Source: a phage. Taken from it: 64,000 bases of DNA. Below are positions 16,155 to 47,328 of this stretch, one piece after another. The notes under the pieces were generated by a model. The model searched no databases. It was not told the origin of the DNA and saw only the letters and a program-made list of their open reading frames with translations. A program made the position numbers and the translations under genes. The stretch's first letter is position 1. Each line of letters starts with the position of its first letter. The stretch is from sequence record PQ826431.1. One strand, 5' to 3'.

Positions 16155-16204
16155 TAATATAAAATTTTTGTCAATAAAAAAGGGAGCAATAAGCTCCCTG
16201 ATTA

Positions 16205-17164
16205 TTAGATTCCAATAATAGTTGCTGCTCGTTTATCCTTGGATCTGGTGTTTGCTCTACTACGTGACAAACCTCCACAAGATTCACAACGAATGATATC
16301 GAAAGAACTTACCGCAGTGTGGTATTGTTTACCAGTAACAACGTGAACGTGATCACTGCCACAACGAGAACAACGGACCTTCTCATCTGGGTAATAAGCG
16401 GATAAGTTAGGATGCTGTGGAATCCACGGAAGGATTTTCATATACAAATCACGGAGTGAAACAACATCACCATCATTGTAAATCTGCATACGTTCAAAAG
16501 CATCACGATCACCTTCACAACATGCTTTCCATAAAGGGAACCCCTCGTTATCCAGTTTTTCACTTTCTGTTTCGAAATATGCTCCCATTTCTTTAAGGGA
16601 GTTGGAAGGAAGTGCAAATTGTTTCTTAGCTGCCTTCAATGTATCAACGACTACATAATTAGAAGGAGGAGCCATATCGTGATATGCAAATCGTTGGTTA
16701 ATGTATGCACGGTCAAACTTATACCCGTTGTGTGCCACAACTACATCTGCCTCGTTCAGAAGGTTCCAAAGATCTTGGCAAAGCTCCCAATCATCTGTAT
16801 GATCAATATCAAAAAGAGGATAAGAAGACAAGTTCTTACCTTCCACTTCACCTGTATACAAATCAGCAGAAGAGTAAGATAACAAATAACCCCTACGAAT
16901 TACTTGATCTGGAGAAATGAAGGCTTTGAATCGACGGAAAGTATATGCAATCTCTGGTGCAGTTTCAACATCAATAATTTTAATAACTGGTTGTTTCTTT
17001 TTAACTGGCTCTTGTCTACTTGCTCCGAATCGTGCAAGGAAATCGTTCACTGTGCTTTTTCTTGTTGGACTACCTAAAACAATTGCTGCAATATTGCGAG
17101 AAGACATACCCTCTGCACTCATACTAAGGATATCTGCTTTCTGCTCTTCTGTTAATCTGCTCAC
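16205..17164 (-). CDS. DnaQ-like 3'-5' exonuclease (DEDD family) with N-terminal HTH-like region and C-terminal zinc ribbon
   Basis: Exo I 'IKIIDVETAPE', Exo II 'VVAHNGYKFDRAYI', Exo III 'YNDGDVVSLRDLY'; C-terminal CxxC...CxxC. Confidence 0.6.
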   Translation of the reverse strand: MSRLTEEQKADILSMSAEGMSSRNIAAIVLGSPTRKSTVNDFLARFGASRQEPVKKKQPVIKIIDVETAPEIAYTFRRFKAFISPDQVIRRGYLLSYSSADLYTGEVEGKNLSSYPLFDIDHTDDWELCQDLWNLLNEADVVVAHNGYKFDRAYINQRFAYHDMAPPSNYVVVDTLKAAKKQFALPSNSLKEMGAYFETESEKLDNEGFPLWKACCEGDRDAFERMQIYNDGDVVSLRDLYMKILPWIPQHPNLSAYYPDEKVRCSRCGSDHVHVVTGKQYHTAVSSFDIIRCESCGGLSRSRANTRSKDKRAATIIGI

Positions 17165-17850
17165 TCTGCCTCCTGTTGCGAGATGTATGACTGAAGCATA
17201 CTCTCAAATGTTGTATCGTCATTATCCCAGCGTTTCATGTATACCAACTGGAAAATTGTTTCTATCCATTCATCTGTTGTCATATGGACTTCTTCTCCAT
17301 CCCAAGAAGTAAAATTAACACCATCTGGGAACCATGAGTAGTAAGTATCTTTAACTGTTTGGAAAAGTTCTGCTTGAGTTTTACAAGCTGAAAGAAGATT
17401 AAAACAAGTAATATCTCCGAACTTAATATCAAAATCTTGATAAGGTCGGATACTATCTGTTTTATCTCCCATTAGCATCTGGTATGCTAACCAGTAACTG
17501 CCCCAACCTTTAACTTCTTTCTTTTTACCTTTATCTACGATCCATATATCGCCAATAGACTCGTCAATAAGAATTATATCTGGATTTTTAAATACTCCAT
17601 CCTCTTTGTAGAAATTAAAAAGGATACTAGGAGTATGTAAACTATCTTTATCTATAGATACTACGATATAAGAAAATTTACCCGTCCTTTTATAATCTTT
17701 ATAACCTTGGAAACCATACTTCTCTAACTCATCATCAGCTTCTATTACAGTAACAACATCACCATTGTGGAACTCCACAAGATAATCTTTGGTTTCTGAA
17801 AGCTGAAGTGGTTTGATATCTAATCGTTCAGATTTATATTCTACAGGCAT
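17161..17850 (-). CDS. hypothetical protein; the same frame is open for a further 147 sense codons upstream (17851..18291) with no ATG/GTG/TTG
   Basis: Track ORF from ATG at 17850; manual translation shows coding-like open frame up to the TAA at 18292-18294. Confidence 0.5.
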   Translation of the reverse strand: MPVEYKSERLDIKPLQLSETKDYLVEFHNGDVVTVIEADDELEKYGFQGYKDYKRTGKFSYIVVSIDKDSLHTPSILFNFYKEDGVFKNPDIILIDESIGDIWIVDKGKKKEVKGWGSYWLAYQMLMGDKTDSIRPYQDFDIKFGDITCFNLLSACKTQAELFQTVKDTYYSWFPDGVNFTSWDGEEVHMTTDEWIETIFQLVYMKRWDNDDTTFESMLQSYISQQEAE

Positions 17851-18291
17851 TTTGAAGGCGTGTCTGAAAGTTTTTCCTACGCCAATAACTCCGCAATATT
17901 TTTCTAAACGTAGATGTTTTAGAATACCTAAGACTTTTGTTTTAGCTGCTTGGAAGGTGTGTCCGATATCTTCTGGCGGGTATTGCTTATCAATGATTTC
18001 GAACTCTTCCTTTGTGAAGGGACGTTTGTTTTTGGAGGCTCTTTCTGCATTTGTATCTCCTAGCCAACCTCCAATTTTAGTCTTACTTTTACCCCAAAAC
18101 TCTGTCTTATTTTTAAATTCCTTTTGAGCACCTGAAGGGATGTGCTTCGCAATGATTGTTCTTTTCTCTAATGCAGACGCTGCTTGGAAAGCGATCTGAT
18201 CATAATCAATTGCAGCTATTGTTTCTTCGTTGACATATAAATGAAGATCTTCAGGTTTAATTAAAATATAACCGCTAATATTTCCCCCTAA

Positions 18292-18501
18292 TTATTCATC
18301 GTCATCCTCTGTTGAGAATGTTTTAGTATACGGACATTGACGACTTTTCGGGATTGCTATAACTTCATCTTGGTTAGCGTTAGAATAGTAGCAATATTTT
18401 GTATTGCCATTAACTTCAGAATCAGACAAGATTAAAGTAATTTGACCTGCTGCTACTGTGAAACTAAAAGCTAAAAGAACGACTGTCAGAATCTTTTTCA
18501 T
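18292..18501 (-). CDS. small secreted/exported protein (signal peptide)
   Basis: N-terminus 'MKKILTVVLLAFSFTVAAGQ' is a typical Sec signal peptide; two Cys in the mature part. Confidence 0.5.
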   Translation of the reverse strand: MKKILTVVLLAFSFTVAAGQITLILSDSEVNGNTKYCYYSNANQDEVIAIPKSRQCPYTKTFSTEDDDE

Positions 18502-18572
18502 AACGCCTCCTAAAAGCCTACCTCATTAAGTAGGTAGGCATAATATCATAACTAATCCCGCAAGTCAAGAAC

Positions 18573-19451
18573 TTATTTAAGGATTGTTGCTTTGGTTAAA
18601 TCTTCCATCAGACCTCGAATCTCATTGAAGCACAGAAGGACCGAAGCTTCAATACTACCTTCTTCGTCTGCAAAATATTTCGGAAAACGTAGTTTAGAAA
18701 GTTTAAACTCTTTATCCACTACAAAATCTACAACACCATCATATTCAAGACCGATTGCAACAACATTTTTACCATCTTCTTTTAGTTCGACAGCTTTAGA
18801 CTCATATAAGGATTCTTTACTCCAAACAACAACGCCCTCGCTATCCTCCATTTTGATATAATTTCCGAGAGTAATACGATCTGCTTCGTGATTCTCCAGC
18901 AATTCACCAAAACCTTTTACAATAGCTTCTTCATGCACACTAAAACCTACTGAAGGGAAAGTCCCCAGAACGGAACGGAGGAAAGAAGTAATCTCTTCTG
19001 CAACCTTTTTACTTCCATTAAGAACATAAAGAAGATTCGTAGTTTTATCCAAGACAACATAGTTAAAGAAATCTTCAGGTTCTGTTTCAGGCAATAGTGC
19101 AAATTCAATATCTTCCTTCATTGCTTTGACTACTTCTTTATCGACATAAAACTCTTTACCTTCGCTCTCCATGTCCTGACGCATTTCTTCTAGACGTTCA
19201 TTCAGAATACGTTTAACTTTCTTTTTATCTACCTTCTTCACAGATTGACCTACATTAAGTAGTTCAAGATCTGAGAACTCTTTTACAAATTTAGAGTCAT
19301 CTTCGAAACGAACAAGACCGATAGTGTGTGACTGGGAGCCTTCTGCTGTTACAAATTCCAGAGGAATATCTGTAATGCTGTTAAGGGATGCTACAGAAGC
19401 ATCGTCACCAACAACCATAGGCAGAGCGGATTTAAAAGATTTTACAAACAT
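18573..19451 (-). CDS. hypothetical acidic protein (292 aa)
   Basis: ORF followed (minus sense) by GC hairpin; no motif recognised. Confidence 0.5.
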   Translation of the reverse strand: MFVKSFKSALPMVVGDDASVASLNSITDIPLEFVTAEGSQSHTIGLVRFEDDSKFVKEFSDLELLNVGQSVKKVDKKKVKRILNERLEEMRQDMESEGKEFYVDKEVVKAMKEDIEFALLPETEPEDFFNYVVLDKTTNLLYVLNGSKKVAEEITSFLRSVLGTFPSVGFSVHEEAIVKGFGELLENHEADRITLGNYIKMEDSEGVVVWSKESLYESKAVELKEDGKNVVAIGLEYDGVVDFVVDKEFKLSKLRFPKYFADEEGSIEASVLLCFNEIRGLMEDLTKATILK

Positions 19452-44570: not shown

Positions 44571-45053
44571 ATGTCACAAGAACAAGATAACACAATTCAA
44601 AAATATGCTCGACCAGAAGAAGTAGTTGAGATTCCGTTAGATGGAAACAGATCTGTTACTTTCCGTATTATGAAGTGGAGTCCATCTAAAGTGTTTGACA
44701 GGATTCCAGAATTGGGTAGTGTTCTGGTTGTTCCTATGACTATGTACAGCACAGCAACAATGTCCGCAGACGAAGACCTTGAGTCACGTATTGCTATGGC
44801 ACTGATCCAACTTTTTGCAGGTTTGGAAGAAAAGAATTTAACTGTCTTTTTGCGTAAAATTTTAGATGAGGTTTATACTCAAGACGGTTATAACGTTGCA
44901 GAAAATTTTGACGAATTATTTATGGCTCACCCAGAACTAGTGTTAGATCTTACTGCTAAAGTTCTGGAGGTAAACTACGGCCCTTTTTTCAAACGAGGTT
45001 TCGGAAAACTGTTCACACAGCTTCAGGCGATGACGAGTTTAGCAGCAAATTAA
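44571..45053 (+). CDS. tail assembly chaperone (G-like), zero-frame product
   Basis: 160 aa between tube and tape measure; contains slippery U_UUU_UUC near its 3' end. Confidence 0.55.
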   Translation: MSQEQDNTIQKYARPEEVVEIPLDGNRSVTFRIMKWSPSKVFDRIPELGSVLVVPMTMYSTATMSADEDLESRIAMALIQLFAGLEEKNLTVFLRKILDEVYTQDGYNVAENFDELFMAHPELVLDLTAKVLEVNYGPFFKRGFGKLFTQLQAMTSLAAN

Positions 45054-45319
45054 CACCTGCGATTGAACATGCTATCGACACAGCAACGAAAACCCTTACT
45101 TTGAAGTGGTATGAGGTTATTCTTTGCAAAGTCGTTAAAGATACCTCGGAAACACTGAAAACATTGGATAACTACGGTGTAGATTATCTTTTAAAACTAT
45201 ATGAGTATTTAACATACGAAGAGTATGTTGAAGCCATGTATGTTAAAGACACTTCAATAAAGAGAAAACATCAAAACCAGACAAATAAAATGTCAGATTT
45301 GTTTAAGAAACTTGTTTAA
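44984..45319 (+). other. predicted -1 programmed frameshift site (T_TTT_TTC at 44984-44990) and -1 frame extension giving a GT-like chaperone fusion
   Basis: The -1 frame is open from the heptamer through the 45101..45319 ORF (which has only a TTG start in the track). Confidence 0.5.
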
Positions 45320-45339: not shown

Positions 45340-47328
45340 TTGTTAGAAATTAACGCCTCCAAAATTAGTAACGTGGTTACGTTTAAGGTGGACAAGAACA
45401 GTCTCAAGGAAGCAAAAGATGCCGTGTTGAGTGTTCAGAAGTTTGCAAATAAAATGCAACCCACTATGAACATGACCAAGTTTAGACAACAAATGAAAGA
45501 GATTGAGCGTGAACTTAAGAAAGCTCAAACTCAAAGTCAAAAACCTATGCGAGCACCTACTCCCGCTGGAGCGGGTGCTCCTGTAGGTGGATCTGGCAGA
45601 CCAAGAACTCCTAAAACCCCGCAAGGAAGAGAAGAAGAAAAAGCTCGTAAAGCGGCTGAACGCGAAGCTAAAGCAGCAGCACGTAGGGAAGACTTAGGTA
45701 ATCTTCGTTTGCAAAACTTTAACTACCGAGCAAAAGCATTTAGTAAAGCCAGCCCTGGCGCTATACAAGAAGCTAGAGACGTTATGGGTAAAGCTGTAGA
45801 GCAATACAAAAAGGGTGAAATAACTCTTCAACGTATGAACCAAGCTCTTGCTCACCAGTTAGATGCCTTACGCAGATCTCATCGTGAAAAGAATGCTGAA
45901 ATAGAAGACGAGGTTCGCGGTCGTCGCCGTATTCGTAGAGAGCTAGAAGCAGAAGCTAAAATGCGTATACGTATGCGAAATCGTGAACTTAGAGATATAG
46001 AACGCAACCGTAAGCGTGAATTAGCTCAACAAAAACGTGATCGTGATCGTCGATATGGACAATTAAAAGAAGGTGCAGCAGGTCTTAATCCACGTATGAT
46101 TGCATCCTCTTTGATAGGTGCTGGGCTGTTTGCAGGTGGTTCTGTAGTTGGTAACACGTTGATGAATACTAACGAAAGAATTAAACTTGTAAGTCGTGGC
46201 GCTGAAAACGTTCAGACAAACGCCAACGCTATTTTGGCAATGACAGCTTGGGGTGAACAGAACGGTGTAGACTCTGCAAATATTATTAAATCAATAGATA
46301 ATATTAAAGACGTTCGTGAACGTCTTGGTAATACAGTTTTAGCCTCAAAATGGAATGAGAAAGAAGGGAAGTGGAAAGGCGGTGATAATGGCATAAATGA
46401 CATTATGAACTTGTTTGGATGGAATCCAGAACAGCTTAAACCTTTACAGAACGACCCTTTAGCTTTTATTCAGGCTACTGTTAATGAAGGTGAGCGTCGA
46501 GGTATGAACTCTGCTCAAATCGGGCGACTTCTTGAAAACCTTGGTGACGACCTTATGCACTACCAGCGCATGTTTAGTAAAAACGGCGAAGGGTATAATG
46601 AGGTATTGAAAATGCTTCAAAGAACAGGTGCAACATTAACTCAAGAACAAATAGATGCTTCTAAAGAGTTTACTCGTTTTGCTGCAACAGTTCAGCTTGT
46701 AGGTCAAGGTATGCAGAACCATTTCTTAGAGGGTTTTGTGAAAGCCTTACCTAAAGATGATTCTTGGTTGGATAACGTTAAAGTGCTAGATCAGTTTGCC
46801 AAAGATTTAGGTGAAGAACTTGGTAAAACAACAGTTCAACTTGGTGGTTTTGCTAAAGAATTGGGAGATGGTTTCGGATCTTTTACCAATTGGCTTAAAG
46901 AAACATTCCCAGATACCTTCGGAGACAACACAGATCCTAATAAATCTATGGCACAAAAAGCATACGAGGCAACGCAAAGTGGAGACAGTAACCCTGTAGC
47001 AGATTGGTTGTACAATTTAACAGGTATTGATACACAAGATATTGGTCGTATGTGGAGAGGAGAACAAACAAGGACACGTGCTTTTGGATTTGGTAATCCT
47101 CTTGAAGATTTACGTGAATCAGCCTATACACCTAACGTAAGTTTGGCTCGTAATCAACCTGTTGTTGAGAATACGGTAGCAATACCAAGTGATCTTATCA
47201 AAGTTACGATCAGTCCTTCTTCCGAGTTTGGAAATATTCTTGATGCAAGAATTCAAAATAGCGGAAATAGCATTTTCCAACGTTTGTCTCTTTCAACTCT
47301 AAGTGGACAATCTAGCACTGGTGGTTAA
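45340..47328 (+). CDS. tail tape measure protein
   Basis: 662 aa, N-terminal charged coiled-coil region, Gly-rich and TM-like central segment, position after chaperone pair; TTG start. Confidence 0.65.
   Translation: MLEINASKISNVVTFKVDKNSLKEAKDAVLSVQKFANKMQPTMNMTKFRQQMKEIERELKKAQTQSQKPMRAPTPAGAGAPVGGSGRPRTPKTPQGREEEKARKAAEREAKAAARREDLGNLRLQNFNYRAKAFSKASPGAIQEARDVMGKAVEQYKKGEITLQRMNQALAHQLDALRRSHREKNAEIEDEVRGRRRIRRELEAEAKMRIRMRNRELRDIERNRKRELAQQKRDRDRRYGQLKEGAAGLNPRMIASSLIGAGLFAGGSVVGNTLMNTNERIKLVSRGAENVQTNANAILAMTAWGEQNGVDSANIIKSIDNIKDVRERLGNTVLASKWNEKEGKWKGGDNGINDIMNLFGWNPEQLKPLQNDPLAFIQATVNEGERRGMNSAQIGRLLENLGDDLMHYQRMFSKNGEGYNEVLKMLQRTGATLTQEQIDASKEFTRFAATVQLVGQGMQNHFLEGFVKALPKDDSWLDNVKVLDQFAKDLGEELGKTTVQLGGFAKELGDGFGSFTNWLKETFPDTFGDNTDPNKSMAQKAYEATQSGDSNPVADWLYNLTGIDTQDIGRMWRGEQTRTRAFGFGNPLEDLRESAYTPNVSLARNQPVVENTVAIPSDLIKVTISPSSEFGNILDARIQNSGNSIFQRLSLSTLSGQSSTGG

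Follow-up and report, generated by a model that had tools for sequence, protein, structure and literature searches.

Non-AUG starts are already known, and the locus described here is a new, well-supported case in which the public annotation is mostly wrong. The start of infC keeps its non-AUG character across species while the exact codon varies, and in phage T4 an internal AUU start within gene 26 was reportedly described by Nivinskas et al. in 1992. In E. coli, AUA, AUC, AUU and CUG are the four near-cognate codons that initiate at 1-2% of AUG, and infC and pcnB are confirmed AUU-started genes (bioRxiv 10.1101/063800). These codons are read by the initiator tRNA at low efficiency and proofread by IF3 (bioRxiv 10.1101/063800; PMC5499595), the use of non-AUG starts depending on IF3, ppGpp, temperature and context (PMC5499595). 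In Streptomyces, the GTC start of sigR is repressed by IF3 (PMC5472188).

The window, the whole stretch of 64,000 nucleotides that was analysed, derives from a phAPEC8-like Phapecoctavirus (Stephanstirmvirinae). Its minus strand contains a long open frame devoid of canonical start codons, followed in frame by an annotated exonuclease. This start-less stretch appears to be the true 5' part (first 143 codons) of a single 372-codon nuclease gene, with translation proposed to start at the ATT at 18279-18277. The whole explanation, a single 372-codon gene with a near-cognate AUU start, is assigned a probability of about 0.87. The features of the locus are the following.

17161..18279, minus strand: predicted full-length FEN-like 5'-3' exonuclease gene, 372 codons plus TGA, with the proposed ATT start
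18277..18279, minus strand: proposed start codon ATT (AUU), the first near-cognate after the upstream stop, 4 nt after the Shine-Dalgarno sequence, with homologous codons in relatives
18283..18289, minus strand: Shine-Dalgarno sequence AGGGGGA, read from the sequence, predicted pairing -9.3 kcal/mol
17851..18276, minus strand: N-terminal 142 codons after the start (residues 2-143), identified from pN/pS, PHROG 107, tblastn and D25/D27
17848..17850, minus strand: internal Met144 codon, the start in most GenBank records, lacking a Shine-Dalgarno sequence and inside a conserved motif
18292..18501, minus strand: 69-aa signal-peptide-like gene, PHROG 4641 (function unknown), from the ORF list and a PHROG match, its TAA 12 nt before the ATT
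18540..18568, minus strand: sigma-70-like promoter TTGACT-17-TATTAT with an extended-10 TG, consensus scan 10/12, pattern match only
16205..17164, minus strand: downstream DnaQ-like 3'-5' exonuclease gene with a GTG start, from the ORF list
16181..16199, minus strand: terminator-like hairpin and T run after the DnaQ-like gene, from a scan, pattern match only

In the minus-strand translation of positions 18300-17161, the sequence following ...DE* comprises 376 sense codons, ending at the TGA at 17163-17161. The leading 147 sense codons (17851-18291) contain no stop and no ATG, GTG or TTG. The frame is bounded at its 5' end by the TAA at 18294-18292, which is also the stop of the 69-aa ORF 18292..18501, and the ATG at 17850-17848 is the earliest in-frame canonical start. 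The preliminary description, made from the letters of the window, had reported this 147-codon start-less frame reaching back to the TAA, and the translation reproduces it. It had also judged such a frame unlikely by chance, in line with the probabilities calculated from base composition alone: ~4e-5 for 147 codons without a stop and ~3e-4 for the absence of a canonical start within 147 sense codons. Across all six frames of the 64-kb window this is the longest start-less leading stretch, the runner-up having 87 codons. Among ~90 gene-like ORFs scanned, only the nuclease frame extends, stop-free, a long way beyond its first canonical start into upstream sequence not otherwise assigned; in the one comparable case, 45101-45319, the ORF overlaps the preceding one instead. 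Residues 1-143 (17851-18279, minus strand) contain zero Met, GTG or TTG codons, and it is this lack of any canonical start that makes the gap so conspicuous in the genus. Because relatives carry in-frame TTG or GTG codons within the N-terminal region, the complete lack in the window is probably due to chance.

The frame of the ORF at 45101-45319 (plus strand) continues without a stop for 47 codons before the first start and runs into the 3' end of ORF 44571-45053, and the ORF lies just before the 662-aa ORF 45340-47328. The segment 44571-45319 resembles a tail-assembly-chaperone programmed frameshift of the kind usually found ahead of a tape-measure gene.

The part of the frame upstream of Met144, referred to here as the extension, evolves under purifying selection, and its synonymous sites are nearly saturated: pN is 0.09-0.25 and pS 0.68-0.81 in comparisons with seven relatives of 72-86% protein identity. 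The extension alone matches PHROG 107 'exonuclease' (E 5e-7) over profile positions 110-185, and the C-terminal part matches positions 191-378, contiguous with them. Searching with the whole 376-codon frame, tblastn returns 1213 phage records, 901 of them with at least 80% query coverage, and the 143-residue extension alone returns 673. In CR3-like, rV5-like, Pseudomonas and Vibrio ICP1 phages, the alignments of distant homologues begin at query residues 1-22. Within the extension, D25 is invariant and D27 near-invariant in a 45-sequence alignment. Homologous, selected coding sequence is found upstream of the first ATG, GTG or TTG, the situation that characterizes near-cognate-start genes. The protein-like appearance of the peptide, noted earlier from the letters, thus reflects real coding sequence (pN << pS, PHROG 107 and tblastn matches), and the comparison with orthologues that had been proposed as a check finds the upstream frame conserved and open in every lineage examined.

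The 372-codon product appears to be a flap-endonuclease-type (FEN-like) 5'-3' exonuclease, with the characteristics of the PIN-like FEN fold (FEN / 5'-3' exonuclease superfamily). Residues D25, E180, D182, D183, D210, D212, D272 and D275 are invariant among 45 sequences and make up the carboxylate cluster expected of this fold; they are the likely metal-binding sites, one of them in the first beta-strand. The Pfam family PF02739 (5'-3' exonuclease N-terminal domain) scores relatives at 24.7-28.3 bits, below its cut-off of 34.3. Mapped via P0035, whose residue 1 corresponds approximately to window residue 23, this sub-threshold region covers roughly window residues 107-224 and straddles Met144. 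The window protein itself gives no PF02739 match at E<=1 in Pfam, only noise, and the extension alone likewise gives noise. A PDB sequence search with the single protein finds nothing, and a PDB profile search yields one marginal match, the Taq 5'-nuclease at E 0.12, good for motif alignment only. The Met144 motif GKTFRHAFKMPVEYKSER aligns to the Taq polymerase 5'-nuclease motif SFRHEAYGGYKAGR. Compared by eye, the Asp of the Taq 'VFD' motif is apparently Gly in the phage nuclease. An extra sequence at ~aa 40-105, with strands at 39-46, 52-55 and 93-100 and helices at 58-62 and 71-82, lies between the D25/D27 motif and the PF02739-like core and accounts for the failure of the Pfam and PDB sequence searches. 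The phage nuclease differs by this insert from T5 D15 exonuclease, T4 RNase H, E. coli ExoIX and the Pol I 5'-nuclease domain, its similarity to them being too low for the PF02739 threshold.

At the junction with the upstream gene, the minus strand reads GAT GAA TAA followed by TTA GGG GGA AAT ATT AGC GGT TAT. Four codons separate the TAA from the ATT at 18279-18277, which is the first near-cognate codon downstream of that stop, and AGGGGG ends 4 nt before it. A near-cognate codon is therefore present at proper Shine-Dalgarno spacing, at the position where canonical-start orthologues begin. The predicted duplex of this Shine-Dalgarno sequence with the 16S 3' end has an energy of -9.3 kcal/mol, against a median of -8.6 over 77 window genes, and ranks 26/77, an ordinary strength. 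A super-Shine-Dalgarno sequence compensating for the weak codon was considered and rejected, as the element is not unusually strong among window genes; being merely average, it offers no obvious compensation. RNA folding of 111 nt around the start reveals no structure beyond that of shuffled sequences (z -0.25), leaving a structural switch at the start unsupported. At ATG 17850, the duplex energy is +0.4 kcal/mol, meaning that no Shine-Dalgarno sequence lies upstream, and Met144 sits inside the conserved motif TFRHxFxMPxEYKxxR. This ATG thus reads as an internal Met144 codon, not a start.

The start was compared in 16 sampled lineages whose protein is 50-86% identical to that of the window. 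In the window and in 16/16 of these clade relatives, the start position holds ATT, ATC, ATA or CTG and never ATG, GTG or TTG. Counted by lineage, ATT occurs in 8, ATC in 5, ATA in 3 and CTG in 1, distributed as follows besides the window.

ATT: L010/L011/L028 (Justusliebigvirus), L024, L025, L031, L032, L033, L034
ATC: L009/L027, L012, L013, L021, L022/L023
ATA: L014, L030, L035
CTG: L015

The set coincides exactly with the four near-cognates reported from E. coli to initiate at 1-2% of AUG. Every relative has AGGAGG or AGGGGG 4-5 nt before the start codon. In L013, a TAA directly precedes the ATC, so that the frame opens exactly at that codon. CR3-like phages carry ATG-GGT-TAT (MGY...) after GAGGAG, versus ATT-AGC-GGT-TAT in the window, and rV5-like phages, together with the metagenomic L037 and L038, carry TTG after AGGAGG at the same aligned residue. 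In a neighbour-joining tree, the ATT, ATC and ATA lineages form one clade and a sister clade holds ATA, CTG and TTG, with the TTG and ATG phages outside. The Pseudomonas Nankokuvirus Epa17, where tblastn reached query residue 1, was considered as a further non-canonical case and turned out to have an ordinary ATG. The non-canonical start is confined to the Stephanstirmvirinae-like clade, where the conservation of a non-canonical codon among orthologues (the window and 16 relatives) points to a weak start as a conserved property of this nuclease gene.

In the main clade, ~5-7 changes are inferred among weak codons, none of them to ATG, GTG or TTG, at saturated synonymous sites, and ATG is reachable from a weak start by a single base change. 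The pattern is only suggestive of active avoidance of ATG at the nuclease start. The missing third-position G over ~5-7 inferred changes is weakly significant on its own, as T-to-C is an easy path and the lineages are related. The change from ATA to CTG (Ile-to-Leu) is one that would also be conservative at an ordinary internal codon, and it counts against the start reading.

Several alternatives were weighed against this arrangement. The AUU might be served chiefly by termination-reinitiation, with ribosomes coming straight from the stop of the upstream small ORF, not by de novo 30S binding, and nuclease output would then follow translation of the upstream gene. As the main route this is unlikely, although it survives better than any other alternative. 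In most lineages the start follows the upstream stop by 8-12 nt, and the stop often overlaps the Shine-Dalgarno sequence (TAGGAGG), but genes are closely packed throughout these genomes. In E. coli, reinitiating ribosomes employ initiator tRNA and IF2, with IF3 modulating the process (PMC2268962); against this route, a strong Shine-Dalgarno sequence at fixed spacing is conserved here, as de novo initiation predicts. ATT/ATA is nevertheless retained in L034, where the upstream gene differs and ends 21 nt away, and in L035, where the stops are located well upstream. Some initiation may still come from ribosomes leaving the upstream ORF, but this is not required, because the ATT and Shine-Dalgarno arrangement persists where the upstream gene differs.

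Initiation at another nearby non-canonical codon, such as the ATT at 18267-18265 or that at 18261-18259, is improbable. Several ATT and ATA codons do fall within the first 10 codons, but the alternatives are at least 16 nt from the Shine-Dalgarno sequence; it is only at the first ATT that every lineage retains a near-cognate with 4-5 nt spacing, and only this position coincides with the ATG or TTG of the canonical-start homologues. The preliminary description had listed initiation at a rare ATT or ATA among its options, and this option is now strongly supported by the Shine-Dalgarno sequence 4 nt away and the ATT, ATC, ATA or CTG found in 16 lineages.

Very improbable is the loss of the start, another of its options, which would leave only the 229-aa product from ATG 17850 and an upstream frame that is decaying or untranslated. 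Nearly all public records annotate that 229-aa CDS, and no canonical start exists upstream of ATG 17850. However, the extension is under purifying selection with synonymous sites saturated, is open in every lineage examined and carries the invariant D25, and divergent lineages also lack a canonical start. Furthermore, the ATG at 17850 has no Shine-Dalgarno sequence and cuts through a conserved motif, and the 229-aa fragment would miss the first strand and an acidic residue of the FEN fold.

Readthrough or recoding, by which the 69-aa signal-peptide gene would be joined to the nuclease and no separate start would be needed, is hardly credible. The two ORFs are indeed in frame in the window, as first described, and are separated only by the TAA and four codons; this relation is a coincidence of the genus, since in L009, L010/L011, L024 and L030 the two genes occupy different frames. 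L013 has two in-frame stops, one of them directly before the start, and L034 carries a methyltransferase gene upstream instead. A conserved in-frame ORF pair with a single leaky stop, as programmed readthrough would have, is not found, the frame relation varying among lineages. The metagenomic gene call P0005 (444 aa, L021, Logan SRR30397360 contig) displays such a fusion, but the locus fails to translate to the query, and the junction contains a TAG that the caller took for a sense codon. P0005 was discarded as a gene-caller artefact; faced with a coding stretch that has no start, the caller probably switched to an alternative genetic code. A secretion signal on a cytoplasmic replication nuclease is also biologically implausible. 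Finally, a sequencing or assembly error near 18280-18300 that removed a canonical start has a negligible chance, as 65/65 GenBank relatives match at 95% identity or more over the 93-nt region 18282-18190 (47 of them identical), the IMG/VR contig L008 and ESCO13 agree through the Shine-Dalgarno sequence and the ATT, and no canonical start exists at the site in any of the divergent lineages that were sequenced independently.

The near-cognate start reading has direct consequences for the public records. The region is at least 99% identical to 32 GenBank Phapecoctavirus phages and 95-99% identical to 33 more. In phAPEC8, SKA64, TSP7_1 and EF1-1, a 229-aa 'putative exonuclease' begins at the ATG equivalent to 17850, leaving a gap of ~440 nt. 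Of 60 listed close relatives, 55 carry no feature across the first 93 nt and 4 are entirely unannotated, and in the Justusliebigvirus records the gene begins 32 codons further downstream, at a GTG that is not conserved. In phAPEC8, gp266 is a 40-aa hypothetical protein encoded by a 123-nt out-of-frame ORF (17928-18050, minus strand) inside the N-terminal region of the nuclease; it is almost certainly a spurious gap-filling call. ESCO13 (KX552041.2; AQM50955.1 / YP_009786567.1) carries a 372-aa putative exonuclease CDS from the same ATT with an annotated RBS, which is the same protein with the same start as in the window; there the start is a database annotation only, given without comparative or experimental support. 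The ESCO13 genome announcement makes no mention of an ATT start, and in the literature on phAPEC8, ESCO13 or phage ATT start codons no description of this start or of its conservation was found, nor were proteomic or ribosome-profiling data for the nuclease N-terminus. The replication/repair nuclease of a widely used therapeutic coliphage group (phAPEC8- and phi92-like) is therefore short by 143 residues in almost every public record, the missing residues including a catalytic-site Asp. Gene callers restricted to ATG, GTG and TTG leave a 440-nt 'gap' or fill it with spurious ORFs, and one switched genetic code.

The surrounding gene order comprises a nucleotide pyrophosphohydrolase, an RdgC-like protein, the 69-aa ORF, the exonuclease and the DnaQ-like exonuclease. 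The last is a 'DNA polymerase exonuclease subunit' in the phAPEC8 annotation, and PF13482 RNase_H_2 is found on its orthologues. The TGA of the nuclease overlaps the GTG start of the DnaQ-like gene (GTGA, 17161-17164, minus strand), the same 4-nt overlap occurring in relatives, so the two nucleases may be translationally coupled; the DnaQ-like gene also has its own AGGAGG. By pattern match only, the sigma-70-like promoter upstream of the 69-aa gene is the probable driver of the operon and the hairpin at 16181..16199 its probable end. At 18511-18568 (minus strand), the promoter is followed directly by a GC-rich hairpin and a short T run (GCCTACCT...AGGTAGGCTTTT), both before the Shine-Dalgarno sequence of the 69-aa gene. 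Together, the promoter and the terminator-like hairpin may act as an attenuator, or the hairpin may stabilise the RNA at its 5' end. The Schickermooser record has a 'terminator' feature somewhere under the 1.7-kb match to 17000-18700.

A tRNA cluster at 29603-31645 (plus strand) contains 10 ARAGORN calls (Met/CAT twice, Arg, Ser, Asn, Thr, Gly, Gln, Pro, Ile), and Rfam adds a tRNA match at 30304-30388 that ARAGORN does not call. The first CAT tRNA, at 29603-29677, resembles by eye E. coli tRNA-Ile2 (lysidine, reads AUA). The second, at 31567-31645 (plus strand, anticodon CAT), displays an initiator-type A1xC72 mismatch, G2:C71/C3:G70/G4:C69 and A11:U24; of the three G:C pairs that bacterial initiators typically have in the anticodon stem, and which initiation proofreading inspects, it has only one. 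This tRNA is present in genomes of both Phapecoctavirus and Justusliebigvirus, and is labelled tRNA-fMet in the BASEL record EmilieFrey. The phage tRNA-Ile(GAU) was considered as an Ile-initiator for AUU or AUC and rejected, having a normal U1:A72 and an ordinary anticodon stem.

In the proposed mechanism, the AGGGGG would position the 30S subunit 4 nt upstream of the AUU at 18279-18277, and the initiator fMet-tRNA would decode the AUU, giving a protein that begins MSGYILIKPEDL... with an expected N-terminal peptide (f)M-SGYILIKPEDLHLYVNEETIAAIDYDQIAFQAASALEK. The weak start, discriminated against by IF3, would keep a potentially harmful nuclease low, at ~1-2% of the level from an AUG start if E. 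coli reporter figures apply, and may make its synthesis sensitive to the host initiation state. The IF3 dependence is expected from the general behaviour of AUU starts, and the purpose would be dosage limitation or IF3 sensing. A link between the initiator-like tRNA and the AUU start is speculative: that the weak start is part of a phage strategy built on relaxed initiation fidelity, with this tRNA as a second IF3-sensitive feature, is distinctly doubtful. If true, the nuclease would be synthesised only once IF3 discrimination has fallen, as might happen late in infection or under host stress, and the same host change would favour the initiator-like tRNA at 31567-31645.

The locus offers a clean natural case of a viral non-AUG start kept over deep divergence with turnover among four near-cognates, and a tractable system for asking why translation of a phage nuclease would be held very low or made IF3-dependent. 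Of the known systems, the E. coli genes infC and pcnB resemble the phage nuclease in having an AUU after a normal Shine-Dalgarno sequence in Enterobacteria-type translation, and infC resembles it further in that the codon varies, here among ATT, ATC, ATA and CTG. They differ in that the product of infC is IF3 itself, whereas the phage product is a predicted nuclease whose AUU start is derived from sequence comparison; as this product is not IF3, no autoregulatory loop is expected, unlike in infC. Streptomyces sigR is similar in that a non-canonical, IF3-responsive start keeps a potent regulator low, as proposed here for an enzyme, and differs in codon, organism and protein; the IF3 effect is experimental in sigR and extrapolated for the phage nuclease. 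T4 gene 26 is likewise a case of an E. coli phage using AUU initiation, but its internal AUU gives a shorter second product, whereas here the AUU would be the sole start of the full-length protein.
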